Source: Candidatus Woesearchaeota archaeon (lineage in GTDB: Archaea > Nanobdellota > Nanobdellia > Woesearchaeales > GW2011-AR4). From it: a stretch of 64,000 nucleotides of DNA. The translations under genes were made by a program, and so were the position numbers. The notes under the pieces are model-generated. The model saw only the letters and a program-made list of their open reading frames with translations, did not search any database and was not told where the DNA came from. How positions within the stretch are numbered: position 1 is the first letter of the stretch; every line of letters begins with the position of its first letter. The stretch lies in contig JACPMX010000006.1 of NCBI GenBank assembly GCA_016185755.1, positions 20,412-84,411 of the forward strand, written 5' to 3'. Below, one piece after another: positions 31,271-63,806 of this stretch.

Positions 31271-31338
31271 GGCGAGGCGAGCGATGTGGCAAAACAGCGA
31301 AGCCGAGCACTAAATAATGTCACGAAGTGACGGATGAA
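31271..31338 (+). repeat. Structured dispersed repeat, copy A
   Basis: GGCGAGGC..TGGCA..GCCGAGCACTAAA TAAT GTCAC-GAA-GTGAC GGATGAA. Confidence 0.8.
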
Positions 31339-31383
31339 AAAATCAATAAAAGCCCATCATAAAATTTAAATATAAAAAATGGA

Positions 31384-31671
31384 TTAAACAGTAACCAGTG
31401 ATTTGGAATTCCCGCAGTAGAAATAGCTTCTTGAGTTTTCCAGCTTTAGGTATCTCTTGGCCCTGTCCAGCTGCTTTTTTGCCTTCAGGATCCTGTAGGA
31501 GCATTTGACTTCATACAGGTCAAACCTGCTGCCCTTTTTTGCCAGTATGTCCACCTCTCCCAATGAGCGCTTTAAGCGCCTGACCGGGACGTTTGTGGAT
31601 ATAGAATCATAGTTGCCTTTTATTTTGTCCTTCAGCTCAAGGACATACCTGTCATGTTTGGACAGCTTGAT
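31384..31671 (-). CDS. Small PD-(D/E)xK nuclease-fold protein (YraN/Hjc-like), ~95 aa, apparent ATC start (not in ORF track)
   Basis: Open frame containing GEVDILAKKG...LYEVKCS...AKKQL; SD GGTGA 4 nt before ATC; no in-frame ATG/GTG/TTG upstream. Confidence 0.7.
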   Translation of the reverse strand: MKLSKHDRYVLELKDKIKGNYDSISTNVPVRRLKRSLGEVDILAKKGSRFDLYEVKCSYRILKAKKQLDRAKRYLKLENSRSYFYCGNSKSLVTV

Positions 31672-31785
31672 GTTTTCACCCAGCCTCAGCCAATAATGAA
31701 TTTTTGGATTAGTGCTTTATATAATTTTCGGTTGTTATTCTGTAATGAATAAATTTAAATATAATCAGCCCTCAAAATTACCAAA

Positions 31786-35543: not shown

Positions 35544-35565
35544 ATTTGCCGAAGGCGGATTGAAA
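35544..35565 (+). repeat. Partial copy D of the structured repeat (3' hairpin only)
   Basis: ATTT GCC-GAA-GGC GGATTGAAA, matching the 3' ends of copies B and C. Confidence 0.6.
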
Positions 35566-35597
35566 TCAGCTTCAATAAAATTAAATAAAAAATTCAA

Positions 35598-41615: not shown

Positions 41616-42887
41616 TTATATTTTGGCAAATCCAGCCTTTTTCCCCAATTCTTCCCCAATTTTCAGCAGCCTGTTGTATTTGGCAGTCCTTTCGCTTCTT
41701 GCAGGAGCTCCAAACTTGCTTTGGCTTGCCCCCAAGCCGACTGCCAGGTCGGCGATGAAGCTGTCTTCTGTCTCCCCGCTTCTGTGGCTCACAACGACAT
41801 TCCATTTGTTTTTAAAAGACAAATTTGCAGCATCTATTGACTCAGTAACTGTACCTATCTGGTTGACTTTCAAGAGCAGCGCATTGCATGCCTTGCGCTC
41901 AAGAGCCGTCCTTATCCTGCCAATGTTCGTCACAAGAAGGTCATCCCCGACAATTTGTATCTTATTTCCCAGTTCCTTGTTAAAAAGCTGCCATCCTTCC
42001 CAGTCATCCTGGGCAAAGCCGTCTTCTATCGAGATTATCGGAAATTTTCCTGCCAAGTTCCTGTAAAAGTCTGTCAGGCCTCCTTTGCTGTAGCCCTTTC
42101 CCATTATATTGTACTTGTCATTTTTCTCGTCGTAGAATTCAGATGCAGCGCAGTCCAGGGCAAGCTTTATTTTACCGGAGTATCCGCTTTCACCAATTGC
42201 TTTCATCAGCAGCTCAAGCCTTTCCCCAATATCTTCAATTGGAGGGGCAAACCCGCCTTCATCACCAAGCAGTATTGCCTTTGCCCCGTATTTTCGTTTT
42301 AAAATATTTTTCAAAGCATGGTAAGTTTCAACTCCTGCCCTCAATGCATCATTGAAATTTTTAAAGCCGGTAGGCATTATCATGTGCTCCTGTATGTCAT
42401 TGTCAACTCCGGCATGCTTTCCGCTGTTTATCACATTCATCTGGGGGACTGGCAAAATAAGCTTTTTTGAGTTTGATAATCCTTGAATGTGCCCGTATAA
42501 CGTGTTATTGCTGCATATGGCGCCTGCCTTGCACACTGCCATTGAAGCCCCCAAAAGGGCATTCGCGCCAAGCCTTGACTTGTTTTCTGTCCCGTCCAAT
42601 TCAATCAGAAAATTGTCGATTTCCCCCTGCCTTCTGCAGTCAAGCCCTATCAGTTTTTTTGCTATGATTTTATTCACATTAGAAACAGCCTTGAGGACTC
42701 CTTTGCCGCTGTGCCTTCTTTTGTCATTGTCCCTTAATTCCAGCGCCTCGTGTATTCCTGTTGAAGCCCCGCTTGGCACAATGGACTTGGCGCAGCAGGA
42801 TCTTGTTGCAAGGCAAACTTCAATTGTCGGGCTGCCCCTGGAGTCCAAAACTTCCCTTGCCGTGACCTTTTTTATCCTGAAATCCAA
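41616..42887 (-). CDS. eno: Enolase
   Basis: [32 protein letters not shown] and SHRSGET; TTG start after SD AGGTGG. Confidence 0.96.
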
Positions 42888-43435: not shown

Positions 43436-44236
43436 CTACCCGATGTAATCCAGCTCCTTGCCAAGCTTCTTCTGCAGCCTCTTCAGTGCAGCCTGCTTTG
43501 TGACCTCGCTGAGCTGCTCTGTTTTTTTGAGTATTTCCCCTTCAATGTCCTTTATTTCCCTGTCCAGCTTGTTGATGTCAAGCTTCAGGCCTAAATTCTT
43601 GTCAAGAACCTTCAAAATTTCCTTTGCGCCTTTTATCCCAAGGTACATTGGGTGCCCATACGTCTCTGCAAGGAACGAGACAGCTTCTATTTTTCTTCTG
43701 GAAGCAAGCCCAAGAAGCAGGCCGGAAACTCCTACGATCGGGCCTACAACCCCATACAGGTTGTCATTTACAAGGCCGTTCTTGTACTTGCTGATTATCT
43801 TTTTCGTGTTGCCTGTGCAGTAAACTTTTGGCTTTTTCGGGATTTCAGCAAGGCCTATCCCCCCCAAGGTTATCACTTCTTTTCCGCTGAATTTCTCTAC
43901 TATATCCAGAACTTTATCCGAAAACTCGTATGAGCTTATCTCGTCAACAGGCTGAACATCCCCCCCGAGCAGCAGCAAGTCCCTTTTCCCGCTGGACTGC
44001 TTGTAAAAAATCTCTACAATAGGGAGCTCGACAAGATTGTCCTCGTTGACAAAAACAGAATGGGGAAAAGTGTATGATGTTATCTCGTATAGTTTTTTTG
44101 CCTTCAGCTCGTCAATCAGGAAATCAACAGCAACCTTCCCGACATTTCCTATTCCCGGCAGTCCTTCTATGAAAATAGGGTTGTTGAGCTTTGGCGTTTT
44201 CCCGAACTGGGTTATCTTCCAGCAATCATCCCTCAT
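43436..44236 (-). CDS. PAC2-family proteasome assembly chaperone
   Basis: EGLPGIGNVGK, ITLGG, IVGVSGLLL, AET and C-terminal YIG; canonical position after nop10. Confidence 0.9.
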   Translation of the reverse strand: MRDDCWKITQFGKTPKLNNPIFIEGLPGIGNVGKVAVDFLIDELKAKKLYEITSYTFPHSVFVNEDNLVELPIVEIFYKQSSGKRDLLLLGGDVQPVDEISSYEFSDKVLDIVEKFSGKEVITLGGIGLAEIPKKPKVYCTGNTKKIISKYKNGLVNDNLYGVVGPIVGVSGLLLGLASRRKIEAVSFLAETYGHPMYLGIKGAKEILKVLDKNLGLKLDINKLDREIKDIEGEILKKTEQLSEVTKQAALKRLQKKLGKELDYIG

Positions 44237-45188: not shown

Positions 45189-45234
45189 TTTATAAAAAAT
45201 ATAGTTTAATCCAATCCGGAACTGCCCGGTTTTT

Positions 45235-49792: not shown

Positions 49793-52396
49793 TTAAGCTG
49801 TTGTTGTAGCAACTGGTGCAGCTACTGTCAGCTGGTTGTTAACCTTCTTTACGGTTACTTTTGTGCCTTTTAACTGGCCTTTGTAGTCGCCGTAGTTAGC
49901 AACAACCTGTGCTGCGTTCCTTGTGTCCAATGCTGCATATCCTGCTACTAGCATTGCCACATTGCCGTTTGCATGTTCCCATACTTGGACCATACCTTCA
50001 CCAGGTGTGAAGCCTGCTGTACAGTCAGCTGGATTTCCCATGACTGTTGCTGCTGCTGCGTTTGCACATGGCCCTCCTACTAGGATGGTGTTCTGTGCTT
50101 TTACATCAGAAACCTCTGATGCCAGCTTTGCAGCTCCAACCTGGATTCTCTGCACTGTCACTGCTTCAGATGTTGATGCTCCAGCCTCGCTGAATGAAGC
50201 TCCCTTGGCTGTTATGTAAACTTGTGGGTACCTCTGCGATTCTGGGTATTCTATTGTTAGTGTAGCCGGTTCACTTGATGGTGTCTCCCTTGTTATAAAG
50301 GTACCATAGGTTGTGTAACCATAGGCTATGTTTGTCTCACCATCTGGTGTTCTTGTAGCCAACTTCTGTCCATCCTGACCTGCTGTGAAAGCAGTAACTT
50401 CAGCATGGGCAACTTTTGTGCTAGAATCCCCAGTTATATTAGCCACATAATCAAGTGGCTTGATGTTTTCCACAGTATCTTTTGCATTACCATCATACAA
50501 CGCATCAGGTGTTTTTATTGTCAAAATAATGCTGTTTTCAGCTGCTCCACCATCAGTTGAATTGACCAAGCCAATCTCTGCTCCATACCTCGTGGTAATA
50601 TTGACAAAAGAGGCATTGACATTGGTAGTCTGGAGAGCTCCACTAGCATCCATATCAACCTTCACATCAAAGTCGTTTGTTGCTATGCTGCTTGCGTTGA
50701 AAACTCTAAAGTCAGCACCTCCAAGCTTTAATGTTGCTAATTGCTGCTCGCCGCCACCTGTTCCAGCTGAATATGTTTGCTCTATGGTATTTCCTGATCC
50801 TAAGTTTTTGAACTTAAGCACAGGGTTGTCATTGCTTACTTTATCAGCACCTTTGTACTGGAGTACATATGTCTTTCTTTCTCCTCTCTTCCTCGTGCCG
50901 TCTGTCACAACAAGGTAATCATCTTTTGTGATTGTCCTATTCTCAACATTGATGAAGTTCTTGTCGGTGTCACCAAACAATATCCTGCTTGCTGCTGGTG
51001 CTTTTGCAATAGGCACATCAACCTTGTTGCCGTCTCCATCAACAAACTCAAGGTTGTACTGGCTTGAGCCGCTTGTTTTAAGCCTTATCTTTTCTGTGTT
51101 TACTTTGGTAAGTCCTTTATATTCAATGTCCCAGTTTTGTGTGAACAATACCTCTGGCTCTGCGCTTGAACCGCCTTCTGTCTTGATTACTTCACTTAAT
51201 TTTCCATTTGCTGGAACGAAGTAGTTGTCGTCAGCAGTCATGTTGACATGTATCCTCGTTAGCCTGAACGTGGAGTTGTCATCTGAGCCTTCTATTAATA
51301 CCTGTGCATCATCAATTGTGTTATCATCCACCTTAAGGCTGTTTGAGGATGTTATTGTAGACTCTTCTACATCTGTATCTTTTAGTTGTATTTTATTTGC
51401 GCCCAAGAAGAATGTTGAGCTGTGGATACCTCCAGCATAGTCCTGGTACAGCACATCGGTTACTCCGACAGTTGTGCCGTCAGCTAACTTGTCTGTGTCG
51501 CCATCCTTCATCTTTCTTGTTGTCTGCCCATTTATGACAAATTGCGCCTCGTCAGCATCAACGAAGTTTAGCGTTACTTCGTAGTCTTTTCCGCCAATGG
51601 TGTAAGACTTTGTCTGCTTTTCAATCAGTGTGTCTTTTCCTGCTCCGCCCATTAAAATCAAGTCAACACCGCCACCGCTTGTGGTTGGTCTTTTTGCAGT
51701 CACAATTGTGTATTTCTTGCCGAATAGTGTAACATCGACGTCTTGTAAATCTGTTAGGAATGTACCTGTTGAAGATGATGAACCAGCCGAATCATCAACA
51801 TCACTTTCCAATGCAGTTGTGAACTCAATCAAATACCTTCCTATCTCTCTTCCTGATTTGAAGTATAGGAAGTCTGCTGTGGCATCTGCGTCATTTTCAG
51901 AATATATAACATATCCTGTGTCTCGTGAAGTTTCTGTTCCAGTTCCTAACAAATAAAGATATTGGTTAAAAGGTGATGTTACCTTATTGTTTGTTACAGA
52001 ACCAGATGCAAGTGCTTTCAAATTATTCTTGTCTACGTAGGTTGTGATATTTCTCAGTGTTTCTATAGAGTCAGATGTAGAACCATCTTGGCTCAATTCC
52101 AAATGGTTTGATGTTCCGACTTTCCATGCATCGCCTTCAACAGCTACTGTTCCTGCTGAGGTTGTTGCTGTCTTCTTTGTTGCTGCGAACTGCAAGCTTG
52201 CAATAACATCTGAAATGCCTATGACATCTTCTGCAGCTGCCTTGTCACCCACTACTAGAACGCCGCTGAATTTTCCATCCTTTACGAATGGTGCTGGGTA
52301 ACTAGCCAAATCTGCTGCTGCGAATACTGACGAGCCAACCATAATAGCTCCTGTACCTAATGCAATCATCCTCTTTATAGCTTTTTGAAATCTCAT
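49793..52396 (-). CDS. S-layer protein
   Basis: Signal peptide, ADLASYPAPFV..VVGDKAAAEDV N-terminus and NTILVGGPCAN...LVAGY...DTR C-terminus; Thr/Asp-rich; skewed codon usage suggesting high expression; SD GGAGGTG. Confidence 0.88.
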   Translation of the reverse strand: MRFQKAIKRMIALGTGAIMVGSSVFAAADLASYPAPFVKDGKFSGVLVVGDKAAAEDVIGISDVIASLQFAATKKTATTSAGTVAVEGDAWKVGTSNHLELSQDGSTSDSIETLRNITTYVDKNNLKALASGSVTNNKVTSPFNQYLYLLGTGTETSRDTGYVIYSENDADATADFLYFKSGREIGRYLIEFTTALESDVDDSAGSSSSTGTFLTDLQDVDVTLFGKKYTIVTAKRPTTSGGGVDLILMGGAGKDTLIEKQTKSYTIGGKDYEVTLNFVDADEAQFVINGQTTRKMKDGDTDKLADGTTVGVTDVLYQDYAGGIHSSTFFLGANKIQLKDTDVEESTITSSNSLKVDDNTIDDAQVLIEGSDDNSTFRLTRIHVNMTADDNYFVPANGKLSEVIKTEGGSSAEPEVLFTQNWDIEYKGLTKVNTEKIRLKTSGSSQYNLEFVDGDGNKVDVPIAKAPAASRILFGDTDKNFINVENRTITKDDYLVVTDGTRKRGERKTYVLQYKGADKVSNDNPVLKFKNLGSGNTIEQTYSAGTGGGEQQLATLKLGGADFRVFNASSIATNDFDVKVDMDASGALQTTNVNASFVNITTRYGAEIGLVNSTDGGAAENSIILTIKTPDALYDGNAKDTVENIKPLDYVANITGDSSTKVAHAEVTAFTAGQDGQKLATRTPDGETNIAYGYTTYGTFITRETPSSEPATLTIEYPESQRYPQVYITAKGASFSEAGASTSEAVTVQRIQVGAAKLASEVSDVKAQNTILVGGPCANAAAATVMGNPADCTAGFTPGEGMVQVWEHANGNVAMLVAGYAALDTRNAAQVVANYGDYKGQLKGTKVTVKKVNNQLTVAAPVATTTA

Positions 52397-52728
52397 CGTC
52401 TAAACACCTCCAAGTGTTTTTTATTTTTTATTTGTATAATATCGTCGATGAATATTATACTCTGTAGGAACACCTCTTCTAGAAGTGCTCTTTGCTGTTA
52501 TATTTAATTATTCATATTTAAAGCTTTTGGTATTGTAGTATACTAAAATATATAGTTTTTAGCATATATATCATCTATTTTATATATGAAAATAATAGGT
52601 ATTGTGCACAGTTTATATTTGTTTTGCTTGATTTAGTTTACTTTATATGCTGTGAAAGTATGCCTTTATTCAATCAAGCACCTCGCCAACGATATATTTA
52701 TAAATGAGTTAATCTCTTAAGCAATTTG

Positions 52729-52953
52729 ATGGAAAGAGTAGTAATTGATCCTAAAATAATGCATGGAAAACCCATAATAAAAGGCACCCGCGTTCCTGTA
52801 GACATAATCCTGGGAGGCTTGATTGGCGGGATGAAATACGAGGAAATTGAAAAGGAATATGGGGTTCAAAGAGAAGATATCCTAGCTGCGATAGAGTATG
52901 CCGCAAAGTTTGTAATAGGGGAAGAAATAAAGCCGCTGAAGATGAGGGCATGA
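52729..52953 (+). CDS. DUF433-family antitoxin
   Basis: IDPKIMHGKPIIKGTRVPV...EDILAAIEYA. Confidence 0.9.
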   Translation: MERVVIDPKIMHGKPIIKGTRVPVDIILGGLIGGMKYEEIEKEYGVQREDILAAIEYAAKFVIGEEIKPLKMRA

Positions 52954-53303
52954 GATTTTTAATAGATGCAGACTCGCCGCATTCTTTGATAGGGATTTTT
53001 AAGAAACACGGGCACGATGCCGTTCATGTTAGAAGTGCATTAGGCTCTGCCACAGATAGCGAAATATTTGAATACGCCAATCAGAACAACTGCATTATAG
53101 TCACAAGGGACTTGGGATTTGCTGATGAATTTATGAAAGGCAAGGGTTTTGGATTGCTTCTCACTAGATTGCCATACCACTTTACAGTTGACAAAATCAA
53201 TCGGGTTTTTGATGAATTTCTGAAAGAAGCCAATGCCGGGGAATTAGTTAATTCTATTACGGTGCTCGAATTGGGAAGATACAGAATTAAGAAGATATTA
53301 TAG
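52950..53303 (+). CDS. DUF5615/Mut7-C-like PIN toxin
   Basis: MRFLIDAD, GHDAVHV, D.EI..YA and IIVTRDLGF. Confidence 0.88.
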   Translation: MRFLIDADSPHSLIGIFKKHGHDAVHVRSALGSATDSEIFEYANQNNCIIVTRDLGFADEFMKGKGFGLLLTRLPYHFTVDKINRVFDEFLKEANAGELVNSITVLELGRYRIKKIL

Positions 53304-53366
53304 TACCTTACGCCAGCTAAAAACAAAATAACATTTAAATAAAACCCTAAAAATACTCAAAATCAA

Positions 53367-54599
53367 ATGCCAAAACAAACAATCTCATTGTGCATGATAA
53401 CCAAGAATGAAGAAAAGTACCTGGAGCAATGCCTTAACTCTGTCAAGGGGTTAGCTGATGAAATCATCATTGTAGATACCGGCAGTACCGACAAGACAAA
53501 GGAGATAGCGAAGAAGTTCAGCGCAAAAATCATAGACTTCAAATGGATTGATGATTTCTCTGCTGCAAGGAATGAGAGCATTAAATATGCTACAAAGGAC
53601 TGGATTCTGGTGCTGGATGCTGACGAGGCTATTGAAAAAGAGGGCATCAAAGCAATAAAAGAATTGGCCAATGACAAGGAAAACGATGCATTCCTGTTTC
53701 TCCAAAAGAATTATACAAATGATTCAAAGATTGCAGGCTTTGTAAATGAAGAGCATAAAAACAAGGGCAAAACTTACCCGGGATGGTATGGCTCTTTCAT
53801 AGCAAGGCTTTTCAGGAATAAGGGCTTCAAATTTGAAGGCACGGTCCACGAGCTTGTAGAGCCGTCTATAGAAGCAAAGAAAGGCAGGATGGCAGCTGCA
53901 AACGTGGCAATCCACCATTACGGAAATGCAGATCCTGAAACAGTAAAGAAGAAAAGGAAAGCATACCTTGAGCTTTGCAGGAAAAAGCTCGGGCAAAAGG
54001 CAGATGCCTCTTCATATTACGAATGCGGCGTTTTATACAAGGAAAACAATAACTTGGATGATGCAATAAAATCATTCAGGAAAGCAATTGAATTAAATCC
54101 AAAGCACAGCATGGCATTCTATGAGCTTGGCGTCATAAGCCAGCAGCAGCAGAACTATGATGAAGCAGTCAAAAACTATACTGAATCCTTGAGGATAAAG
54201 GAAAACGCAGAGGTTTTCCAGAGCCTTGGTGTTTGCTGCCTGAAGCAGGACAAGCTGAAGGAAGCCTATAGGAACCTTGTAAAGGCCCTGCTGCTGAATC
54301 CCAACAAGTATACTATATATAATAGTATGGCCGCGGTGCAGGAAAGGCTGGGCAACTATGATTCAGCGATACAGATGGCGCAGATATCGGTAAAGCTCAA
54401 TCCTAACAATGCCATTGGCTTCTATAATCTTGGGATAGCTCTTGACAAGAAAGGAAGCTTCAGGGAATCAATTCCTGCTTACGAGAAAGCTGTTGAGCTT
54501 GGATATAAAAAAAGCGAAGAGATCAAGAAAAGAATCAATCAGCTCAAAGGCATACTTAATCTTCCCAGCTACAAGTATGGGTTTAATGTTGGCGGGTAG
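53367..54599 (+). CDS. Family 2 glycosyltransferase with TPR repeats
   Basis: ISLCMITKNEE, VDTGSTD, DFSAARN, LDADE and VHE; C-terminal TPR repeats. Confidence 0.92.
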   Translation: MPKQTISLCMITKNEEKYLEQCLNSVKGLADEIIIVDTGSTDKTKEIAKKFSAKIIDFKWIDDFSAARNESIKYATKDWILVLDADEAIEKEGIKAIKELANDKENDAFLFLQKNYTNDSKIAGFVNEEHKNKGKTYPGWYGSFIARLFRNKGFKFEGTVHELVEPSIEAKKGRMAAANVAIHHYGNADPETVKKKRKAYLELCRKKLGQKADASSYYECGVLYKENNNLDDAIKSFRKAIELNPKHSMAFYELGVISQQQQNYDEAVKNYTESLRIKENAEVFQSLGVCCLKQDKLKEAYRNLVKALLLNPNKYTIYNSMAAVQERLGNYDSAIQMAQISVKLNPNNAIGFYNLGIALDKKGSFRESIPAYEKAVELGYKKSEEIKKRINQLKGILNLPSYKYGFNVGG

Positions 54600-54600
54600 A

Positions 54601-55602
54601 TTATTTTAAGTTGTATACACCTTTCATATGCTGATACACCTTTGAGGATATCCCTCTTATTAAACTGCCCCTGTTCCATGTCCATAGTAAACCGTTAGGC
54701 GTTTGCTTTTCTATAATTGCAATAAAAATATACGGATAAAATTTACCGTCATTTCCTTGAGATTCTACGATAGCCATATCGCCTGCCACTCTTCCGCTTG
54801 TCCCTGTTCTGCTGTATATTTTTGTATTTTTTGGGATGCCCTCAACGTCCCAAACAGTCCTGTTTTTCTTAGGCAGCGACATCATTCTTTTAAGCTCTCT
54901 TGAGTAAGGAAGCTTCTCTGACCAAAGTCCTTGTAAAAACCTTTGATAATCGAGTGCTGATGCAAGATTGCTGTAATAAGACCTGCCGCTTGGAACACCT
55001 TCTACTTTTAGGCCTCTTGATTTGGCTACTATCTTGTTTTTTAAGGTTAGGGGAATATAGTCATTGATGTCAATGTTCTGAAAAATGCTTCCATACTGTG
55101 TCTTTAGTATCTTATCAACTTGAGAAGGACCGCCAAGCAGCTGCATAACCCAATTTGTAGCTACATTATCGCTTTTTTGCAGCATCATTTCCATGGCATA
55201 CTTAACTTCTTGGCTATATTGAAGTTCACGTTTTTCAACTTTATTAAAGTAGGCAAGAACAACAAACGGCTTAATCATGCTCGCAGCCTGGACTTGTTCG
55301 CTATCTTTTATTGAAACTAATTTTTGCCCTGATACCAAATCATAAACAGAAAGCGCTACATTTTCATCGGCTTTAAGCTTTTTTTGCCTTAATACTCTTA
55401 GATGCATTTGCAGTTTTTGATCAAGACTTTCGGTAACCTGTCGTGGCTGAGTAGGTCTTGTTTGTGGCTGCCTATTTCTTTGTCGTGCATAGATTCTTCT
55501 GGGCAAAGCTAATCCTGCTAAGGTACCAGCTGAGATAGTCAGAAAGCTTCTCCTATCATACCCCGGGTTATGACTTGCAGTTTCTTGTTCTAAATCTACC
55601 AT
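54601..55602 (-). CDS. Class A beta-lactamase-like serine hydrolase with Tat signal peptide
   Basis: DRRSFL twin-arginine motif; SxxK (ASMIK), SDN and RTGT in the KTG position. Confidence 0.85.
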   Translation of the reverse strand: MVDLEQETASHNPGYDRRSFLTISAGTLAGLALPRRIYARQRNRQPQTRPTQPRQVTESLDQKLQMHLRVLRQKKLKADENVALSVYDLVSGQKLVSIKDSEQVQAASMIKPFVVLAYFNKVEKRELQYSQEVKYAMEMMLQKSDNVATNWVMQLLGGPSQVDKILKTQYGSIFQNIDINDYIPLTLKNKIVAKSRGLKVEGVPSGRSYYSNLASALDYQRFLQGLWSEKLPYSRELKRMMSLPKKNRTVWDVEGIPKNTKIYSRTGTSGRVAGDMAIVESQGNDGKFYPYIFIAIIEKQTPNGLLWTWNRGSLIRGISSKVYQHMKGVYNLK

Positions 55603-55670
55603 CTAGAATAAGATTGGAAAATTTCTATTTATAAACTTTTCTATTTTTACTACTTAAAAGTAATTATAAT

Positions 55671-56522
55671 TTACCCCTGCAGAATCTTATAGAAAGTATC
55701 GAATATCGGCGTGTCTGTCACAGCCAGCTTATAGCTTATCCCGAGCTTGTTGCACACTTCCTCAATGCCTGCGCAGTGGGAATCCAGCTGCTGCTGGTAT
55801 TCCATCCTCATCCTCGGGCTTATGAAGGTGCGGAGCATGCCTTTTGTCTCGCTGTCTATCAGCTTCATGTCGCCTTCCATCTTCAGCTCTTTCTCAACCC
55901 GGTCAAGCACCTGTATTATCTTTATTTCATGGTCGCCAAGAAGGTAAAACGCCTCGCGTATCTCCTCGATATTGACCAAAAAATCAGATGCAATCACAAG
56001 CATTGACCTGCTGCCAATCACTTTCTTGTACTGCCTTACCGTGTCGAGCAATTTGGAAAATCCCTTTGGCTTTATCGAGTTCAGGTGCTGCACCATTGCA
56101 GCCAAATGGCTCATTCCTCTCCTAGGCTGGAAAATCTCAAGCTGGTCTGCAAATGTCGAGAACTGGAACTTTTCATTGTCCCGCATGGCAAGGTATGCAA
56201 ATCCAACGCCAATCATCGAGGCATAATCAAACTTGCTTACCGGCTTCCCGAAGCCCATTGACGCGCTGCCGTCTATTATTATATGCACCGTGAGGTTCCT
56301 TTCCTCCTCGTGCACTTTCAGGTAAAGGTTGTCGGTCCTTGCATAAACCTTCCAGTCTATCAGCCTTATGTCATCTCCAGGGGCATAAATCCTGTAGTCC
56401 TTGAACGTCAGCCCGTGCCCTGCAGCCGAAGACTTCCTAGGACCGCTCAAATTGGAAGTAACCCTCTTGTTTATGACCAGGTTAAACCTCGTCAGCTGGT
56501 CCAGAAAGCCCGTGTCAATCAT
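55671..56522 (-). CDS. DUF58 (vWA-like) protein
   Basis: F.DYR.Y.PGDD.R.IDWK.YAR, DGSASM and SDF; start moved to 56522. Confidence 0.92.
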   Translation of the reverse strand: MIDTGFLDQLTRFNLVINKRVTSNLSGPRKSSAAGHGLTFKDYRIYAPGDDIRLIDWKVYARTDNLYLKVHEEERNLTVHIIIDGSASMGFGKPVSKFDYASMIGVGFAYLAMRDNEKFQFSTFADQLEIFQPRRGMSHLAAMVQHLNSIKPKGFSKLLDTVRQYKKVIGSRSMLVIASDFLVNIEEIREAFYLLGDHEIKIIQVLDRVEKELKMEGDMKLIDSETKGMLRTFISPRMRMEYQQQLDSHCAGIEEVCNKLGISYKLAVTDTPIFDTFYKILQG

Positions 56523-56552
56523 TTTGTTTAGTTTATTTTGTAATTTTATATT

Positions 56553-56623
56553 TTCAATCCGCGACTTCGTCGCAATATTTAGTGCTCGGCTGCTCATTCT
56601 CTGCCAGTATTCGCAGCCTCGCC
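56553..56623 (-). repeat. Structured dispersed repeat, copy B
   Basis: GGCGAGGC..TGGCA..GCCGAGCACTAAA TATT GCGAC-GAA-GTCGC GGATTGAA. Confidence 0.8.
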
Positions 56624-56650
56624 CATTATATTCATTGATTATTGAATATT

Positions 56651-56726
56651 TCGAGGCGAAAATTAGTGCTAATCAATTTTCGCCGAGCGTAAACAGGAAA
56701 ATTTGCAAGCAAATTTTCGGATTGAA
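56651..56726 (+). repeat. Structured dispersed repeat, divergent copy E (back-to-back with B)
   Basis: CGAGGCGAAAATT..AATTTTCGCCGAGCGTAAA CAG GAAAATTTGC-AA-GCAAATTTTC GGATTGAA. Confidence 0.65.
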
Positions 56727-56749
56727 TATTTTTTTAATCCCAGATACTT

Positions 56750-57685
56750 TTATTTTATCTTGTCCAGTATCTGCTTTATGGCGTCGTCCTTTGACATGCC
56801 CTTCCTTTCAGCCTCGAAATTCAGGATTATCCTGTGCCTGAGGATCGGGTAGGCCAGCATGTTGAGGTCGTCATTGCTTACATGGTTCCTGCCCTGTATC
56901 AGCGCCCTTGCCTTTGACGCCATGATCAGGCCTATGGATGCCCTTGGAGATGCTCCGTATTGGATAATCTCCTTGTTTGCCCTTGTTGCAAGCACAATCT
57001 TCACAGCCCTCTGCTTTATGTCGTTTGCAATCGGCACCTGCCTTGTCAGCCCCTGCAAGGTAAGCAGGTGGTTCTTGTTCAGCATGACCTTCAGCTTTTG
57101 GTCCTTTGCCTCTGCAGCATATTTGTCAACAATCTGCAGCTCCTGCTCGTAAGTCGGGTAATTCACGCTTATCTTCAGCAAAAACCTGTCTGCCTGCGCC
57201 TCAGGCAATGGGTATGTCCCTTCCTGCTCGATTGGGTTTTGGGTTGCAAGCACGAAAAAGGGCAGGTCAAGTTTGAAAGTATTGGTTCCCACGGTCACTT
57301 GCTTCTCCTGCATAGCCTCAAGCAGGGCGCTTTGCGTTTTCGGAGTTGCCCTGTTTATCTCGTCTGCAAGCACTACATTTGCAAAGATAGGCCCCGGCTG
57401 GAACTTGAACTGCCTCTTTCCGGATGATTCCTCTATGATGTTGGTTCCTGTAATGTCGCTCGGCATCAGGTCGGGAGTGTTCTGTATCCTGCTGAACTTC
57501 AAGTCCATGAGCTGGGCAAGCGTCCTGACTGTAAGGGTCTTTGCCAGTCCCGGATATCCCTCAAGCAGCGCATTGCCGTCGCACAAAATAGCTATAAGAA
57601 TCTGCTCTATGATGCTCTCCTGCCCTACGATAACCTTGCCGGTCTCCTTTTGCAGCTCGTCGAAAATCTGCTTGTAATTCTTCAT
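56750..57685 (-). CDS. moxR: MoxR-family AAA+ ATPase
   Basis: LLEGYPGLAKT, TPDLMPSDITG, LADEINR, ATQNPIEQEGTYPLPEAQ.DRF and GASPR. Confidence 0.95.
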   Translation of the reverse strand: MKNYKQIFDELQKETGKVIVGQESIIEQILIAILCDGNALLEGYPGLAKTLTVRTLAQLMDLKFSRIQNTPDLMPSDITGTNIIEESSGKRQFKFQPGPIFANVVLADEINRATPKTQSALLEAMQEKQVTVGTNTFKLDLPFFVLATQNPIEQEGTYPLPEAQADRFLLKISVNYPTYEQELQIVDKYAAEAKDQKLKVMLNKNHLLTLQGLTRQVPIANDIKQRAVKIVLATRANKEIIQYGASPRASIGLIMASKARALIQGRNHVSNDDLNMLAYPILRHRIILNFEAERKGMSKDDAIKQILDKIK

Positions 57686-57828
57686 TCAGTTCACCTCAAA
57701 TTTTTTGTTTGATTTTTATTGATTTTATATGTTTGTTGTTAATCTTGCCATTGTATTTTATTATTTTTTTATGAATTTTTTATTAATGCTAATCGTCAAT
57801 GGATTTTGTTTGTTTCTTTTATTTAACT

Positions 57829-58593
57829 TTACCCTTCTGCCAGCTTCTTGAAATAGTTTTTCACCAGCTCCTGCTGCTCCTGGGGTATGTTCTCCTCGTA
57901 TGCAGCTGTTTCCTTGACTGCAAGCTCCTGAGGGAACACTGTCTCGAATTTCTGCTGCTGGAAATCGCCCTCTTCTTTCACGTTAATCTTGAAGTCAACG
58001 GGCTTTATCCTTATGTTCAGCTCATTGTCGCCCAGCTTTGCCACGTCCTCCTTGCCGTATATGTCATCGCTTGTGTTCAGCTTTGTGGCAACAAAATTTC
58101 CGACGCCTTTCGGCCCTTCAAATATGTCCGGGACCCTGTTCTTGGCAAATTCCAGGAACTTGATGTTTAGCGTTGTCGCAAATATTATCATGAACGATAG
58201 GACCATCACCGCGAATATCTTGTAGGACAGTGTTCTTGGGTTGATGAACATCGACAATCCGACATTTTTCATCTCGCTTGTAACCTCGTATTCAAGCTCC
58301 TCAACAATTGGGTTGCTCATCCCTATGTTGTCGGCTGCAGTCCTCAATTTTTCCCTCAAAGGAGCATACTTGCTCTCGACAATGCCGGGCTTGTACGACC
58401 TGAAGCTCATGTAGGAATAAAATCCCAAATATCCGAGCGCAGGTATCAGCGCAAGAAGCGGAGGCATGTCAAAAATTGACAACGCAAGATAAAAAGACAG
58501 GAACACAAGGGTCGTGTTTACGATGTTCTCGAACAGTATCATCTCTGTCAAGGTCCTGTTGATTTCCTTTACAACATCTCCGAATTGTTTCAT
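57829..58593 (-). CDS. Conserved membrane protein of the MoxR/vWA operon
   Basis: Two TM helices, E..Y..LREKLRTAADN, a third TM helix and C-terminal IP....ELVKNYF. Confidence 0.75.
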   Translation of the reverse strand: MKQFGDVVKEINRTLTEMILFENIVNTTLVFLSFYLALSIFDMPPLLALIPALGYLGFYSYMSFRSYKPGIVESKYAPLREKLRTAADNIGMSNPIVEELEYEVTSEMKNVGLSMFINPRTLSYKIFAVMVLSFMIIFATTLNIKFLEFAKNRVPDIFEGPKGVGNFVATKLNTSDDIYGKEDVAKLGDNELNIRIKPVDFKINVKEEGDFQQQKFETVFPQELAVKETAAYEENIPQEQQELVKNYFKKLAEG

Positions 58594-58594
58594 G

Positions 58595-59098
58595 TCAGCA
58601 GCTCCCCTCGTCTGTATCAACCTTTTCCTTGAGGCATTTTACTTTGTTGTCAAGCTTTGTGACATCTGATTTCAGGTTGTTAACCTGCCTGGTAAGCTCC
58701 TGCGCAAGCTGAACCTGGGCAGCAAGCTGGCTTTTGGTTGAGCCAAGCTCAGATACCGTCGCGGACAGCTGGGTTTTTGTGCTTGTCAACTCCGTTTCAA
58801 GCTTTTTCTTGTCTGTTTCAAGCTGCGACCTTTGGCTTTCTGTGTCCACGTATTTCTTGCTCAGGTCATCTTCCTTCTGCTTCTTGAGCTGGAGCTGTAT
58901 GCTGGTTTCATTCAGCTGGCCTCTTTTTGATTCCAGCTCATTGCTCACTTTCTCAAGCTCATTCAGCTTTATCTCGTAGCTTTTGGAAACGTTCTTGAAA
59001 GTTGTCTGGTAATAGACCGTGAAGCCGCTGAACATCAGCAGCGCAGCCACTATCAGCAGCAGCAGGCCCAGATTGACGTCTTTTTTCATTACTCCCAT
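58595..59098 (-). CDS. Membrane-anchored coiled-coil protein
   Basis: N-terminal TM helix followed by long heptad repeats. Confidence 0.75.
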   Translation of the reverse strand: MGVMKKDVNLGLLLLIVAALLMFSGFTVYYQTTFKNVSKSYEIKLNELEKVSNELESKRGQLNETSIQLQLKKQKEDDLSKKYVDTESQRSQLETDKKKLETELTSTKTQLSATVSELGSTKSQLAAQVQLAQELTRQVNNLKSDVTKLDNKVKCLKEKVDTDEGSC

Positions 59099-59268
59099 TT
59101 TTTGTCGCCTCTTTATTTTGACATTTTATAATTTTTATGTTATTTAATTTGTTGTTTTTTGCTGATTTTTAATGGATTTTGTTAATGTTGATATTTATTG
59201 GATTTTTAGTAAATTTGCTTTTTTACTCTCTTTATTGGGTTTTTTTGTTAATGGTTATATTTTATTTT

Positions 59269-61725
59269 TTATTTATACTGCAGGTTTTCCCTGTACCTTC
59301 TTATGGCTATCTCGCCCAAAAACAGCAGCATCGCGATGATTGCAAGCGGCCACCTGTAATCCGTTGACTCAATTTTTATTCTTTTCGATTTTGCCCTTAC
59401 AAATTCTATGATTCCCTTTGTGTCGCCCGGGTCAAAAACTTTCCCTCCTGTCTTGTCGACAAGGCTCGTAAAGTCCTCATTTATCCCGAGGTTTGCGTAC
59501 TCGTCATTGTAATTGGTTGCAAAAGTCGCCCCCAAAATCTCCTTGAACCCGGTTTCTTTCGATGCATATGAAGACGAGTATAAGTTTGTGTCTATCTTGG
59601 CAAAAGCAAGCCCCTCTGAGCCGGGCATTTCCCTTGTTATTACATTGACGCTTGTGGATTTCCCCAAAACAGTGTCCCTTATCGTCACATCATAGGATTT
59701 TTTCCTTCCCAAGTCCCCTATTGCCCAGTTTATGCTTTTTGTCAGCAGTTTTGAGTTCTTCTTGTTCAGCAATTCCCCTGCCCACTTGGTGCCGTCGTCG
59801 GTTGTTACAGTCACGACCCTTCCAAGGCCGAAGCGCCATACAACCAGTATCGGGATATTTTTGTGAGTAGTTACAAGCAATCTTGCAGCAGGCTTCGGCA
59901 CGACATAGTTGTATCCTGAAACAGTCGCATGCATGTCGTCAAGCGCAAAGGTTATGAAATGAGTGGTGTCTATGGGAATCAGTGTATTGTAGAATTCCTC
60001 TCCTTTTGCCTCGTCCTTGTCTGCAAATTCAACCTTCAATTTGTTTGAGGCATCAGTCTTGTAATAGATTCCGCCTCCAAGAGTAGCCATGTTTGCAAGG
60101 AATAAATTGTTGTCCGTTGATAAATCATCTGTGTCGGTCCCTACCCCGACTACAAAAACCTTGACGCCTTTTGCATTTACGCTTCTTACAACGCTTAAAG
60201 TGTCTTCCCTCAGCTTGCCGTAAGTTGTCTTGCCGTCGCTGATGAAAATGATGTTCTTGCTTCCCCCGACAGTGCTCAGCATCCTGAAGGCCCCCTCTAT
60301 TCCGAGATTGAAGTAAGACTGCCCGTCAAATTTCAGCCTGGATATTTTTTCCTTCAGCTCCTTCTTGTGCTCCTTCAGCGGCTTTATCTCTGCTATCTGG
60401 TAAGCCTGCGTGCTGAAGGCAACAGCGCCTACATTGTTTTTCTCGCTGAGGCTGTCTATGACGCTTAACGCAAGGGCCTTTTCAACAGCCACATAATCCT
60501 CTGTCCCATGGGATATGTCAATAACAACAACAACGTTTATGTCGCTCTTGTTCTGCTCTTCTCCTGCTCCAATTTTTACAGGAAGCAGGGTTTCAAGCAA
60601 AGTTCCCTTGTAGCCGCCCCTCTCGAATGAATTCTCGCCCCCTACAAAAATAAGGCCGTTCCCGTCTGAAACATAATCGCTAAGCATATTCACTGAAGAG
60701 GTTAATTTTGCAATTCTCAGGTCATTTACGATGACTGCCATGTAGTCGGACAAATCATTTGGAACATTATTCTTGACGTCAAGCTCGTATATCTTGTCAA
60801 GCTCCTGCGCCAGGGGCGAATTTTTTTCCGTCAGGTAAAGGACTTTCGGCCTTGGCACTATCTTGATGCTCTTGTAAAATATGTTGTTGTCCTTGAAATA
60901 ATCATTACCTTTGATGTCAATCAGCTTTGCCGTCAGCTTGTGGTATTCTCCTTCAGGAAATCTCCTTGAGAAGGCGAAACTCCTTGAGCCGCTGGCCTCT
61001 TCCTCGAGCACAAGCCCTGTGCTGTCAATTGTGACCTGCAGGGTGTATTGCACGTTTTTCCCGACAGATGAGACTCTTACGACAAAATCCCCTTCAGTGT
61101 CCTTTATCAGCTCAGGAGGGCCTTCGATTACAACACCCACATCATTATTTACCGGCTCCATCCTTAACGTGCTGACCGATGAGTTTATGTTTGAAGCGAA
61201 AAGCATTATGTCCCCAAGCAGCTTCCCCTCATTGTTTGCCCCGTCTGTTATCACCATTACATTGTCTTCCCCTTCTATGTTGTTGAGGATTCCGTTTCCT
61301 ATCGCGGAGTGCTCGCCGCTTGCAATTGTCCTTATGTTAACGGGGATCGTCCCTTCCAGTTTTTTGTACAGGTCATATGCAATTCCGGGATTGTAAAGCA
61401 CCATGGAGCTGGAATTGTCTACAAGAATCGTGAGCCTTGGGTCCCCCTGCACGGACTTGCTTTCCAGCACGAAAGGGGATGCAATCGCAACCATCAGGAA
61501 GGCAAGCGCAAGGCTCCTTAAGGTAAGTATTATCCTCCTGTCGGTCTTTTTTGTTTTCAGGTAAGCTTCAAGCTCAAGCCTGTTGCCGAACTTTACAAAT
61601 GTTTTTCTTGTGAACCAGAAAATAAGCAAAAGCACCGGAACGATTGCTATTAGCACATAGGAGTATCTTACGCAGTACTTCGATACGCAGTAAATGCTGC
61701 TGTAGTCAGGTATTACGAAGCTCAC
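59269..61725 (-). CDS. Membrane-anchored double-vWA protein with GATase-like region
   Basis: DNSSSM/ITDG and DISHG/ISDG MIDAS-like motifs, GG..SF..GGY...LE.LLPV, WRFGLGRV; TM helices at both ends. Confidence 0.85.
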   Translation of the reverse strand: MSFVIPDYSSIYCVSKYCVRYSYVLIAIVPVLLLIFWFTRKTFVKFGNRLELEAYLKTKKTDRRIILTLRSLALAFLMVAIASPFVLESKSVQGDPRLTILVDNSSSMVLYNPGIAYDLYKKLEGTIPVNIRTIASGEHSAIGNGILNNIEGEDNVMVITDGANNEGKLLGDIMLFASNINSSVSTLRMEPVNNDVGVVIEGPPELIKDTEGDFVVRVSSVGKNVQYTLQVTIDSTGLVLEEEASGSRSFAFSRRFPEGEYHKLTAKLIDIKGNDYFKDNNIFYKSIKIVPRPKVLYLTEKNSPLAQELDKIYELDVKNNVPNDLSDYMAVIVNDLRIAKLTSSVNMLSDYVSDGNGLIFVGGENSFERGGYKGTLLETLLPVKIGAGEEQNKSDINVVVVIDISHGTEDYVAVEKALALSVIDSLSEKNNVGAVAFSTQAYQIAEIKPLKEHKKELKEKISRLKFDGQSYFNLGIEGAFRMLSTVGGSKNIIFISDGKTTYGKLREDTLSVVRSVNAKGVKVFVVGVGTDTDDLSTDNNLFLANMATLGGGIYYKTDASNKLKVEFADKDEAKGEEFYNTLIPIDTTHFITFALDDMHATVSGYNYVVPKPAARLLVTTHKNIPILVVWRFGLGRVVTVTTDDGTKWAGELLNKKNSKLLTKSINWAIGDLGRKKSYDVTIRDTVLGKSTSVNVITREMPGSEGLAFAKIDTNLYSSSYASKETGFKEILGATFATNYNDEYANLGINEDFTSLVDKTGGKVFDPGDTKGIIEFVRAKSKRIKIESTDYRWPLAIIAMLLFLGEIAIRRYRENLQYK

Positions 61726-63596
61726 AGGTCACCCCTTCTTTTTATGTAGAAAAATTCACCGAGCATGAGCAGGAAAGCAAGCAGGAGTATCGGCAGCTCA
61801 AGGTTGAAGTCATGCTCTTTGCTTTCCCTCTCCAGGATCTGCTCTCTTGCCTTGCGCGACTCCACTTTTGAAGAAATGCCCACACTGGATTCTTTCTCGT
61901 CAAGTAGGTTGACGGCATATTTCTTCGCGCCTATTTCGTAAATGCCGACTTCGTCCATCAGCAGCTTTGAGGTTGTGACGGTTGAAGACGGGGTTTTTAC
62001 TTTCTGCTCCCCTATCGTGAATATCTTGCCTGTCTTGTGGTTGTAGTCTTTTATGTCCTCTGCCCCCACCATGAAATTGATGAGCGAGCTCCAGAATATG
62101 GGGTATGATGGCAGCGTCCTGAAATCGCTTGACTCGTCGAAAATGCCGTAATAAGCGACCTTGCCGTTTTTCCTCTCCCCATACACAACAAGGGGGGTCT
62201 TGTCATCAGCTGAAGCGAAAGTTATCATTCCTTTTTTAGCCTCGGCGCCAAAGTAAGACGCTGTCGTCGTGAAGCATCTTTCCTTTTCAAACTGCTTTGT
62301 TATCTGGTTTATAGTTTCCACGCAGACTTTTGTCGGCTTGTTTATCTTGATTTTCAATTCGACACTCGGAAGGCTTTTCATGCTTATCTCCTTCATATCT
62401 TCCTGCGCCGCTATTATAAGATTTCCTCCCTTTTCGACATATTCCTCTATATCGTCGAATGTTCCCGGCACAATGCCGTCCCTTTTGTTGACATTGTTGA
62501 TTTTGTAGACTATTATCATGTCGTGCTTGTACGGCTCTATCTTTTCCTTCCTTGTGTTTATTGTAAGCACAGGGGGATTGACCACATTGAGCTCGATGTC
62601 TTTTGCAGCCCCCAAAGCAGACTCAAGATTGCTGTTTTTCTCATTTGTTATGAGCAGCACGCTGTTTTTTATCTTTGGCGGGGTTGCTATGTATGCAACA
62701 TCATCCAATTCAAGGTCGTCTTTGGGGTCAAGCTCGACTTTGGAAACTCCTGCAGGCGTGTCAAAGATGAAATTTTCAACCGAGTTTGGGGCGATTCTTA
62801 CATTTGTCTGGGTTATGACCTTGCCGTCCTTGACCAGCTTTATTACAACCTGCTTCTGCTCGCTGTTGAAGTTCTTGACATAGACTTTTGTGTTGTATTT
62901 TGTGGCTTCAAGCCTTATTATTCCCGCATTTTTTGCATTGTTTGAAACATCCACAAAATCAACCAGCTTGTCCTCTGCAGACAAAGTAGTCCTGACAACC
63001 TCTATGTCCGGGCCCTCTGTTGCAAGAAAATCGCTCAGCACCACGATCCTGCCCGGCTTGTCGCCAAGCATGTCCTTTGCAAGCAGCAAAGCATCCCCGA
63101 GATTAGTTGTCGTGGCCCTTGGCCTGATTTTTGACAGCACGTCAAGCGCAACATCGGAATTTTCATTTTCAAGCACTATCAGGGGGGTGTTTTCGGCCAT
63201 TATTATGCTGTTCTTGCCGCTCACTGCCTTTTTTGCCTCGTCCAGCGCCCTGTCGAACCTTGAAACACCTTTTTCTTTTGCCTGCATTGAAGCGCTCACG
63301 TCCAGTATTATGACTGTGTTTTCCAAAGTCACGTCATATTTCAGCTTGGCAAACGGTGCAGCCGCGACTAGTGACAAGCCGAGTATCGCGAGCAGCTGCA
63401 TGAGGAAAAGCAGGTTTGTCATCAGCTTCTGGAAGAAAGAGTACTGGTTTGACCTCTTTTTGTCCTGCATTATGAACATCAGCGAGGGTATTATCTTGTC
63501 CTGCGGCTTCGGCCTCCTGAGATAGAGTATGACAAACACGCCTACTGCTGCCAAAGCCAATAGCCCAAGCGGCCTATGGAAAGGTAAGGTCACCAT
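61722..63596 (-). CDS. BatA-domain/vWA membrane protein
   Basis: LYL.RP.P....PSLMF BatA N-terminus, DVSASM, LSDF, YPIFW and C-terminal TM helix ending RRGDL. Confidence 0.88.
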   Translation of the reverse strand: MVTLPFHRPLGLLALAAVGVFVILYLRRPKPQDKIIPSLMFIMQDKKRSNQYSFFQKLMTNLLFLMQLLAILGLSLVAAAPFAKLKYDVTLENTVIILDVSASMQAKEKGVSRFDRALDEAKKAVSGKNSIIMAENTPLIVLENENSDVALDVLSKIRPRATTTNLGDALLLAKDMLGDKPGRIVVLSDFLATEGPDIEVVRTTLSAEDKLVDFVDVSNNAKNAGIIRLEATKYNTKVYVKNFNSEQKQVVIKLVKDGKVITQTNVRIAPNSVENFIFDTPAGVSKVELDPKDDLELDDVAYIATPPKIKNSVLLITNEKNSNLESALGAAKDIELNVVNPPVLTINTRKEKIEPYKHDMIIVYKINNVNKRDGIVPGTFDDIEEYVEKGGNLIIAAQEDMKEISMKSLPSVELKIKINKPTKVCVETINQITKQFEKERCFTTTASYFGAEAKKGMITFASADDKTPLVVYGERKNGKVAYYGIFDESSDFRTLPSYPIFWSSLINFMVGAEDIKDYNHKTGKIFTIGEQKVKTPSSTVTTSKLLMDEVGIYEIGAKKYAVNLLDEKESSVGISSKVESRKAREQILERESKEHDFNLELPILLLAFLLMLGEFFYIKRRGDL

Positions 63597-63739
63597 TTTT
63601 GCTTTTTATTTTGTTATGTTATTTTTTTAATTTTTTGTTGTTATATTTTATTTTTTCGTTAATGGGTTTTCGTTATTGTGTTTTTGTTAATGTTAATCGT
63701 CAATGGCTTTTCATTTTTTGATTTTCTTTCAATCGCATC

Positions 63740-63806
63740 TTAAATCCGCCTTCGGCAAATTTTAGTGCTCGGCTCGTTCCTTTCTGCCATTGAAACTCGC
63801 CTCGCT
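63740..63806 (-). repeat. Structured dispersed repeat, copy C
   Basis: AGCGAGGC..TGGCA..GCCGAGCACTAAA ATTT GCC-GAA-GGC GGATTTAA. Confidence 0.8.

Follow-up and report, generated by a model that had tools for sequence, protein, structure and literature searches.

The repeats closest to the family described here are the repetitive extragenic palindromes (REPs) of proteobacteria, which are grouped into bacterial interspersed mosaic elements (BIMEs) and REP doublets forming hairpins (REPINs), and the Correia elements (Correia repeat enclosed elements, CREEs) of Neisseria. REPs are single palindromes of 20–40 nt, near-identical from copy to copy, which lie in 3′ or intra-operon transcribed spacers, carry a GTAG or CGTC tag (a REP feature according to the accessible parts of PMC3733652 and PMC6006769), and are expected to flank, and to be inherited together with, the gene for a REP-associated tyrosine transposase (RAYT). 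Correia elements are small, non-coding intergenic repeats with promoter-like ends, so that an insertion can give the neighbouring gene a promoter. Their copies are near-identical, with 26-bp terminal inverted repeats and a TA duplication. The present family was recognised in a stretch of 64 000 nt (the window; G000:C3:20412–84411, from contig JACPMX010000006.1 of assembly GCA_016185755.1) belonging to a Candidatus Woesearchaeota archaeon, whose genome (G000) comprises 1.25 Mb in 16 contigs, with 42 % G+C and a completeness of 94 %. It consists of non-coding units of about 75 nt, and at a probability of roughly 0.55 is read as a non-autonomous, structure-selected repeat that lies between the end of one gene and the promoter of the next, and is confined to a single GTDB family of Woesearchaeota (DPANN archaea). 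The best-supported description is of an element that is REP/BIME-like in organisation and Correia-like in its promoter-type end box, without the defining characters of either. An initial annotation made from the window alone had listed four full copies and one partial copy, together with a consensus sequence; both the sequence itself and a covariance model confirm that all five are real, that the consensus is correct, and that, as was claimed, each copy is intergenic, lying outside long open reading frames (ORFs).

To define the family, a pattern search yielding 15 copies was converted to a profile, with which nhmmer returned 41 matches at E ≤ 0.1, and a covariance model was built from 32 aligned copies with the structure written by hand. 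This model gives 54 matches in the source genome at E ≤ 1, 53 of them below 0.01, and these 53 copies all fall outside long ORFs. Amongst sampled relatives, covariance matches are present in 22 of 24 other congeners and, outside the family, in 1 of 16 genomes of the same order. The GTDB family as a whole yields them in 53 of its 70 genomes, representing 8 of 12 genera (tallies that take in the unpublished genome G072), with copy numbers ranging from 0 to at least 68, no more than 68 candidates having been scored, and reaching 100 for G021 in the separate sample of relatives. Four congeners have no match, namely G050 and G056 (91–93 % complete) and G006 and G011 (78–80 % complete). Searching Rfam with the whole window at gathering thresholds gives one tRNA-like match only, and a permissive search (E ≤ 5) with ten element loci reaches at best 18 bits, against cut-offs of 37–70. 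A motif scan of IMG/VR viral contigs picked out 36 stretches, none of which was confirmed by the model (best 20 bits, in G+C-rich DNA). The description of the element as dispersed and previously unannotated is therefore sustained: further copies and covariation (see below) were both found, and no Rfam match was. Likewise, no published account of the family was encountered in the literature searched, the sequences of the one relevant census not having been compared, and it is apparently undescribed. The sole mention in print found for small Woesearchaeota repeats is that bulk census of miniature transposable elements with inverted repeats (MITEs), the accessible part of which gives one Woesearchaea genome 105 MITEs per Mb (PMC11602168).

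The architecture of the unit was derived from the folds of all copies together with their alignment. Each opens with a short AT-rich extension (TTAATGAATAATAGG; (T)TAATGAATAATAGG) and a start of (T)AGG-CGAGG or AATCCGAGG, leading into a basal helix with a tandem G-A step (C-GA-GG/CC-GA-G, or CC-GA-GC). Above this stands P1, a variable stem that often contains more G-A steps and whose loop holds TGGCA (RTGGCA). A linker (ACTAAATATT or GTAA...) connects it to P2, a G+C-rich hairpin of 4–5 bp capped by a GAA triloop, after which the unit ends in a TATA-like tail, GGATT(G/T/A)AA. Two subtypes are distinguished at the base of P1 and in the linker, with type 1 reading GGCGAGG ... CCGAGCAC and type 2 reading AATCCGAGG ... 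CCGAG(C/T)GTAA; the source genome holds 29 type 1, 13 type 2 and 11 unclassed short-P1 copies. Single units make up 29 of the 53 matches. Adjacent opposite-strand copies are without exception head-to-head (12 of 12, one being a weak overlapping match), with their tails outward and 11–23 nt between them. Whilst the copies, consensus and fold of the initial annotation hold good, these subtypes, the head-to-head pairing and the coupling to promoters set out below had no place in it.

Evidence for selection on the fold comes from 85 copies from more than 20 genomes, aligned by fitting to the model structure. Pair cells are occupied by paired bases in 90.1 % of cases, compared with 69.2 % in shuffles and 31–47 % with slid partners, and changes on both sides are found in 15 of 17 pairs. 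The basal GA/GA step is kept in 80 of the 85. Three earlier claims, that the second stem varies yet keeps its pairing, that the GC-GA-GG/CC-GA-GC step is genuine, and that structure is selected over sequence, are hence upheld and extend to the family generally. Amongst 1350 pair cells, 88.7 % are Watson–Crick; G-T pairs (1.4 %) are about as common as A-C pairs (1.2 %), and wobble pairs thus appear to bring no advantage, whereas G-A or A-G accounts for 4.8 %, against 1.4 % for C-T or T-C. The sense strand is more stable than the antisense strand in 78 of 85 copies using RNA parameters, and in 81 of 85 using DNA parameters. P2 is capped by a triloop in 72 of the 85, of the form GNA in 64 (GAA in 60) and closed by C-G, with a GNRA tetraloop in just one. 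Because G-T pairs are rare, the triloops are GNA, the G-A pairs are tandem and one strand alone folds well, the element seems to carry the signature of folded single-stranded DNA; a strand-specific fold with DNA-type rules would fit this better than RNA, in keeping with the single-stranded DNA features noted at the outset.

Comparable folds are known from short DNA hairpins. In many copies P2 is literally GCGAAGC or CCGAAGG, as in the mini-hairpins d(GCGAAGC) and d(CCGAAGG). This motif, in which a short G+C stem bears a GAA or GGA triloop, is stable as DNA and far less so as RNA, with melting temperatures of 76.5 °C for d(GCGAAGC) versus 39 °C for r(GCGAAAGC), and is found at primase sites and phage N4 hairpin promoters (PMC13037366, a 2026 review, in its accessible part); d(GNA) loops depend strongly on the closing pair, according to the portion available of PMC3201870. 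Primase and N4 sites are, however, single origins or promoters on phage or plasmid DNA, rather than a chromosomal family of 50–100 copies. The attC sites of integrons similarly combine a conserved fold with variable sequence and are recognised as folded single-stranded DNA. They differ in being one long imperfect hairpin, in a single orientation, behind promoterless cassettes next to an integrase gene, whereas the present units form inverted pairs between housekeeping genes; an attC reading was considered from the sequence and dropped. Kink-turns, in which tandem G-A pairs are preceded by a 3-nt bulge on one strand, bind L7Ae; this reading was also dropped, as the G-A step here is symmetric (GC-GA-GG versus CC-GA-GC) and has no bulge. 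Box C/D, H/ACA and riboswitch readings were similarly set aside, there being no boxes and no common function amongst downstream genes, the neighbours being as varied as DUF58, BatA/VWA, ScpA, a ribosomal protein and tRNA-Val.

The second line of evidence is position. Across 403 element-free upstream regions the sequence is A-rich from −37 to −33, T-rich from −30 to −28 and A-rich from −27 to −23 relative to the ATG, with a weak G enrichment near −8 and a GGAGG-type ribosome-binding site in a minority of genes. Given a run of A resembling the B recognition element (BRE) at −37 to −33 and a TATA box at −30 to −23, most promoters in this genome are seemingly leaderless. Gene calls were crude longest ORFs, some with wrong starts or stops. 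On these, 18 of 29 type 1, 8 of 11 short-P1 and 2 of 13 type 2 copies in the source genome are followed by a tRNA gene or, at no more than 70 nt, by the start of a co-oriented ORF. In a multi-genome set of 112 matches (four being places fetched twice), a co-oriented start lies within 150 nt of 62 of 90 type 1 units, 33 of the 62 at 20–34 nt past the model end, and of 6 of 22 type 2 units, with no distance peak. The type 1 peak therefore places GGATTGAA at approximately −40 to −31, against the BRE/TATA. Furthermore, 535 promoters without an element show a mild enrichment of GATT(G/A/T)AA at −35 to −31, typically in the form GAAAA-GATTTAAATA, and so the tail resembles a TATA box. The centre of the P2 loop is estimated, from tail-to-ATG distances added to the lengths of P2 and the tail, at about 45–50 nt 5′ of the start codon, and not at the start of transcription. 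Thus the type 1 tail usually appears to lie at the BRE/TATA position, on the upstream edge of the leaderless promoter belonging to the next gene, and type 2 is, to judge from its placement, the head-to-head partner of type 1, facing the stop codon of the previous gene. By the crude calls, pairs lie between tandem genes in nine cases, between convergent genes in three and between divergent genes in none. Spacers with an element are tandem in 27, divergent in 8 and convergent in 6 cases, the figures for all spacers of at least 150 nt being 153, 85 and 40.

Within the window this arrangement is displayed at the MoxR|DUF58 junction. Copy B (type 1; 56548–56625, − strand; 79.8 bits, E = 6.9 × 10−20) has a tail, GGATTGAA, that stops 30 nt ahead of the ATG of the DUF58 gene (56522) and is directly followed by AATATAAAA at the TATA position. 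The tail abuts a candidate leaderless core promoter for that gene (56523–56552, − strand), proposed from the genome-wide upstream profile and the sequence. Copy C (type 2, CGAGG ... CCGAGCGTAA; 56648–56731, + strand; 57.3 bits, E = 1.6 × 10−13) has an entirely Watson–Crick P1 and a long P2, with a tail pointing at the stop codon of the MoxR gene, 23 nt off. Between the heads of the two copies, sequence reading places the AT-rich spacer TTATATTCATTGATTATTGAAT (56626–56647, no strand assigned), a quasi-palindromic 5′ extension common to both.

The third line of evidence is the comparison of orthologous junctions. At MoxR|DUF58, the type 2 plus type 1 pair is present in G021 as well, with stems that differ; units are rearranged or partial in G004, G001 and G017, and the spacers of G014, G011 and G006 are unrelated. 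Of the 21 element loci taken from G021, a flank could be mapped to the source genome for 18, and 4 of these clearly hold the element there too. At six others the genes of the source genome are 0 to about 75 nt apart (two of these being overlapping or 7-nt junctions), where G021 has 150–290 nt containing one or more units and an AT-rich promoter-like stretch. The enolase|gpmA junction was compared in the 26 of 30 genomes with both genes in the locus: 12 are compact, 10 contain an extra gene, 3 have a type 1 unit just 5′ of gpmA, and 1 has a 59-nt gap. The cassette of G021 and G045 is common to both and almost identical, whilst the unit of G044 is different and belongs to the short-P1 subfamily. 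In the gpmA tree G044 is the sister of G012 (support 99/95) and at least two state changes are needed, which would suggest at least two independent gains at this junction. In G012 only ...ACAGATTAAAAAT is left, at the TATA position, which may be read as a tail-only remnant of the same character as the partial copy of the window (35548–35566). Filled and compact orthologous sites, a comparison that the initial annotation had proposed, are therefore both in evidence. As a separate observation, this junction (window 41616–41640, − strand) is unusually plastic, the genes overlapping or abutting in the 12 compact genomes and the extra gene of the other 10 adding about 800 nt.

The copies themselves are considerably diverged. 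Median pairwise identity is 0.605 in the source genome, with 1 of 1378 pairs at 0.9 or above, and 0.70 amongst 28 copies of G021, where no pair reaches 0.9. The two most alike copies in the source genome are identical from GCGAGG to CAGATTT, with unrelated flanks. Similarly, P1-spacer-P1 is almost identical, with a handful of differences, in the B/C pair and in one on contig 7, the P2 hairpins being unrelated. Such divergence and mosaicism imply that the family has evolved without a recent burst, through rare duplications, exchange between copies by recombination, compensatory changes and deletions on the head side. No target-site duplication is visible at seven filled-versus-compact junctions or in the G044/G012 comparison, although AT-rich, diverged flanks could hide a short one. 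Contigs from four DNA runs covering window 44001–64000 are fragmentary and offer no clean empty site; they break or misjoin at copies (joints from 56591 to 63780 and from 56591 to 48052; loose ends at 56628 and 56692–3).

Since the same junction may be filled in one species and compact in another, the family is best regarded as a non-autonomous repeat, REP/BIME-like or Correia-like. Units have evidently been gained or lost at gene junctions during speciation, and modules have evidently recombined between copies. The likeness to REPs and BIMEs extends to high-copy extragenic hairpin repeats in two types inverted around a short linker, a strand-specific fold, mosaic composition and a patchy distribution amongst relatives; numerous extragenic and alternately oriented copies, as expected of such elements, are found here. 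Conversely, the units measure about 75 nt and comprise two hairpins instead of a single palindrome, have no GTAG or CGTC tag, vary in their stems (median identity 0.6), lie at promoter edges in an archaeal host, and are associated with neither a RAYT nor co-occurring Y1 proteins. The terminal inverted repeats, TA duplication and near-identical copies of Correia elements were none of them seen.

Mechanistically, the fold would be selected on one strand and would act as folded single-stranded DNA, either by being recognised by an enzyme specific for structure, which would spread or rearrange the element, or by forming an extruded hairpin beside the promoter. The tail, in turn, would supply or reinforce the promoter of the downstream gene, as the outward promoters of Correia elements do. 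A bolder version, put forward tentatively and rather unlikely to be right in full, is that these are mobile archaeal 'promoter cassettes', moved or recombination-copied as folded single-stranded DNA by a non-RAYT enzyme, in which a GAA mini-hairpin by the TATA-like tail tunes or marks initiation. If true, expression in streamlined DPANN genomes would be rewired by the gain and loss of elements.

A number of points weigh against the interpretation as a non-autonomous repeat. No transposase, terminal inverted repeat or target-site duplication can be defined for the family, and with copies this old and diverged, recent transposition is not demonstrated. Long-term selection at fixed sites for a host function is equally compatible with the data, and loss by deletion could explain many of the compact junctions. 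With crude gene calls, at least three cases scored as facing a stop in fact face a real small gene or tRNA. The figure of 90.1 % pairing is somewhat inflated by the fitting of the alignment to the model, with hairpins being also evident copy by copy in individual folds, and the choice of DNA over RNA would rest on indirect signatures.

The serious rival that remains, although unlikely, is a cis-acting role in transcription punctuation, at the level of RNA or of the DNA template. Here each copy, read from head to tail, would terminate or insulate in one direction, having spread through its usefulness, with type 1 halting upstream read-through before the next promoter and type 2 halting antisense transcription before the upstream gene. 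The restriction of all 12 pairs to tandem or convergent genes agrees with this, as do copies that have diverged yet kept their fold, as a selected cis element would, and the sense strand of type 1, which in tandem arrays corresponds to the RNA-like strand of read-through transcription. Pair and loop counts speak the other way, in that G-U pairs (1.4 %) no commoner than A-C pairs (1.2 %) and a single GNRA loop in 85 are unusual for a selected RNA hairpin. Runs of at least four T, a further point in favour of this rival, follow the tail in 8 of 16 type 2 and 14 of 55 type 1 copies, although the T-richness past type 2 may be the complement of A-rich coding-strand spacers, and most type 1 tails lead into A-rich rather than U-rich sequence, with runs of at least five A in 27 of 55. 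In addition, congeners with 0–1 copies have the orthologous genes without the element.

Distinctly improbable is the proposal of the initial annotation, a REP/BIME system mobilised by a Y1 HUH (histidine-hydrophobic-histidine) transposase of TnpA-REP/RAYT or insertion sequence (IS) 200 type. High-copy extragenic hairpins in inverted pairs of two types do recall BIMEs as portrayed in the accessible part of PMC2817692, the fold is strand-specific and of DNA type, and the source genome contains two Y1_Tnp genes. These, of 148 and 159 aa, are solitary and IS200-type, without tnpB; one is flanked by Trm1 and a NUDIX gene, and next to the other is a gene for a HaeII-type endonuclease. The covariance scan finds no copy near or flanking either gene, however, and the two loci share end hairpins of their own that, compared as resident IS200/IS605 ends or the possible source of derived palindrome-associated transposable elements, are unlike the family: CGGAC-TTTA-GTCCG, and a GTGC..GCAC stem followed by (C)AATCTC (positions 1290–1460 of L032, G000:C12:58030–61383; positions 1360–1410 and 1885–1910 of L031, G000:C6:63531–66875). 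Across 43 congeners, copy number is uncorrelated with Y1 matches (Spearman 0.06, a test limited by completeness of 62–99 % amongst these metagenome-assembled genomes, MAGs). Y1 is present in 12 of 22 genomes with at least 20 copies and in 5 of 9 with four or fewer; G021, G017, G001, G016 and G005 have 39 to at least 68 copies and no Y1 match, and G056 has nine Y1 matches and no copy. The units also lack a GTAG or CGTC tag at the 5′ end, and, going by the accessible part of PMC6006769, only IS200 subclass 1.1 of TnpA-Y1 is seen in Archaea, from which REP/RAYT-type systems are so far unreported. The suggested Y1/HUH link accordingly finds no support. In L032, the first Y1 hairpin is followed by CAGATGAAT, which bears a faint likeness to the tail of the repeat.

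More doubtful again is an ordinary MITE in which the head-to-head pair is what moves, driven by a DDE transposase such as that of the resident IS5/IS903-like element. The ends of the pair are indeed inverted and point outward (TTCAATCC ... GGATTGAA), a second contig carries a duplicate of one pair core, and the census cited above lists 105 MITEs per Mb for a Woesearchaea genome. Nevertheless, the tract duplicated on contig 7 is the centre of the pair and not its ends, the halves of a pair are different subtypes, more than half of all matches are single, and no duplication was seen flanking pairs or singles. The IS903-like element 18 kb beyond the window, the only insertion sequence compared for this reading, has ends (GGCTTTGCAC...) and a 9-bp duplication (AAAATGACC) unlike the family. 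Least credible of all is a set of genes for small trans-acting RNAs, with divergent transcription starting from TATA-like boxes in the spacer. In pairs, a TATTTATT-like box does lie 23–30 nt 5′ of the opposite copy's CGAGG, at the spacing of real promoters, and variable stems with conserved boxes recall guide RNAs. Against this, those singles that are preceded by a third hairpin module have no such box at 23–30 nt, there is no BRE-like run of A, pairs and loops follow DNA-type statistics, congeners differ in copy number from 0 to about 100, and no Rfam relative was found.

The family offers a clean natural set of data on DNA-type rules for hairpins under selection (tandem G-A pairs and C-G-closed GNA triloops), a case of operon junctions split by a unit ending in a promoter-like box, and a marker that varies between 0 and about 100 copies amongst congeners. 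For annotation, it accounts for a large share of the longer intergenic regions in such genomes, and a label as RNA genes would be unwarranted without transcript data. The public sequencing runs listed for the organism are groundwater DNA only, with no RNA run, and are silent on expression. Window genes are archaeal in character (prefoldin, FtsY, ScpA), and the closest named relatives of one window protein are from groundwater 'Candidatus Woesearchaeota' MAGs, at 73–75 % identity.

The third hairpin module is unrelated to the family, with the form GCGAC(T/C)-stem ... stem-GT(A/G)A(T/C)CCGC and then TTTTGAT. It is present in the source genome at C16:159911–159948 (+), C16:161803–161842 (+), C12:140789–140827 (−), C4:2186–2224 (−) and C12:23021–23060 (+), as well as at about ten further sites, a loose regular expression for it giving mostly false matches. 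At eight loci it lies directly past stop codons and immediately 5′ of type 1 units, and looks like a terminator-side partner replacing type 2.

Copy A (type 1, GGCGAGG ... CCGAGCAC; 31269–31344, + strand; 69.8 bits, E = 4.5 × 10−17) is unpaired, with an extra tandem G-A step in P1, a P2 of GTCAC-GAA-GTGAC and the tail GGATGAAA. A tRNA-like gene lies upstream on the opposite strand (31101–31150, −), matched by Rfam as a partial tRNA (model positions 10–63) and not called by ARAGORN. That program yields no more than 11 tRNA genes for this 94 %-complete genome, and so many of its tRNAs are probably split, permuted or equipped with unusual introns. Beyond copy A, 440 nt without an ORF of at least 60 aa separate it from the ScpA gene (31345–31785, +); this stretch has a TTTAAATA box about 35 nt past the tail and no Rfam match at E ≤ 1, and may hold an unrecognised RNA or small gene. 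The partial copy (35548–35566, + strand, by sequence reading) consists of a P2 hairpin, GCC-GAA-GGC, and the tail GGATTGAAA only, 31 nt 5′ of the start of a S-adenosylmethionine (SAM) hydroxide adenosyltransferase gene (35598), and can be read as the remnant of a full copy that has lost P1.

Copy D (type 1; 63735–63808, − strand; 58.5 bits, E = 7.4 × 10−14) has a P2 of GCC-GAA-GGC and the tail GGATTTAA. The start of the BatA/VWA gene (63596) is 139 nt from the end of the model match and about 144 nt from the end of the tail, with an A/C-rich, leader-like stretch in between (63597–63734, −). This stretch is almost G-free (AACGATTAACATTAACAAAAA, then CCAATAA-like repeats), recurs at C6:43580–43640, C9:7027–7150 and C12:124460–124547 of the source genome, where start codons are 90–140 nt from a type 1 tail, and may be an unstructured leader. 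Finally, the MoxR AAA+ gene next to copy C (window 56750–57685) has orthologues that are split into residues 1–163 and 155–311, about 1.5 kb apart, at L133 (G020:C48), L139/L140 (G021:C11) and L134 (G011:C128). In G020 and G021 both halves are contained in one frame of 837–838 aa, whilst the 413-aa frame of G011 matches the second half only, and the interruption looks like an intein in the ATPase domain.

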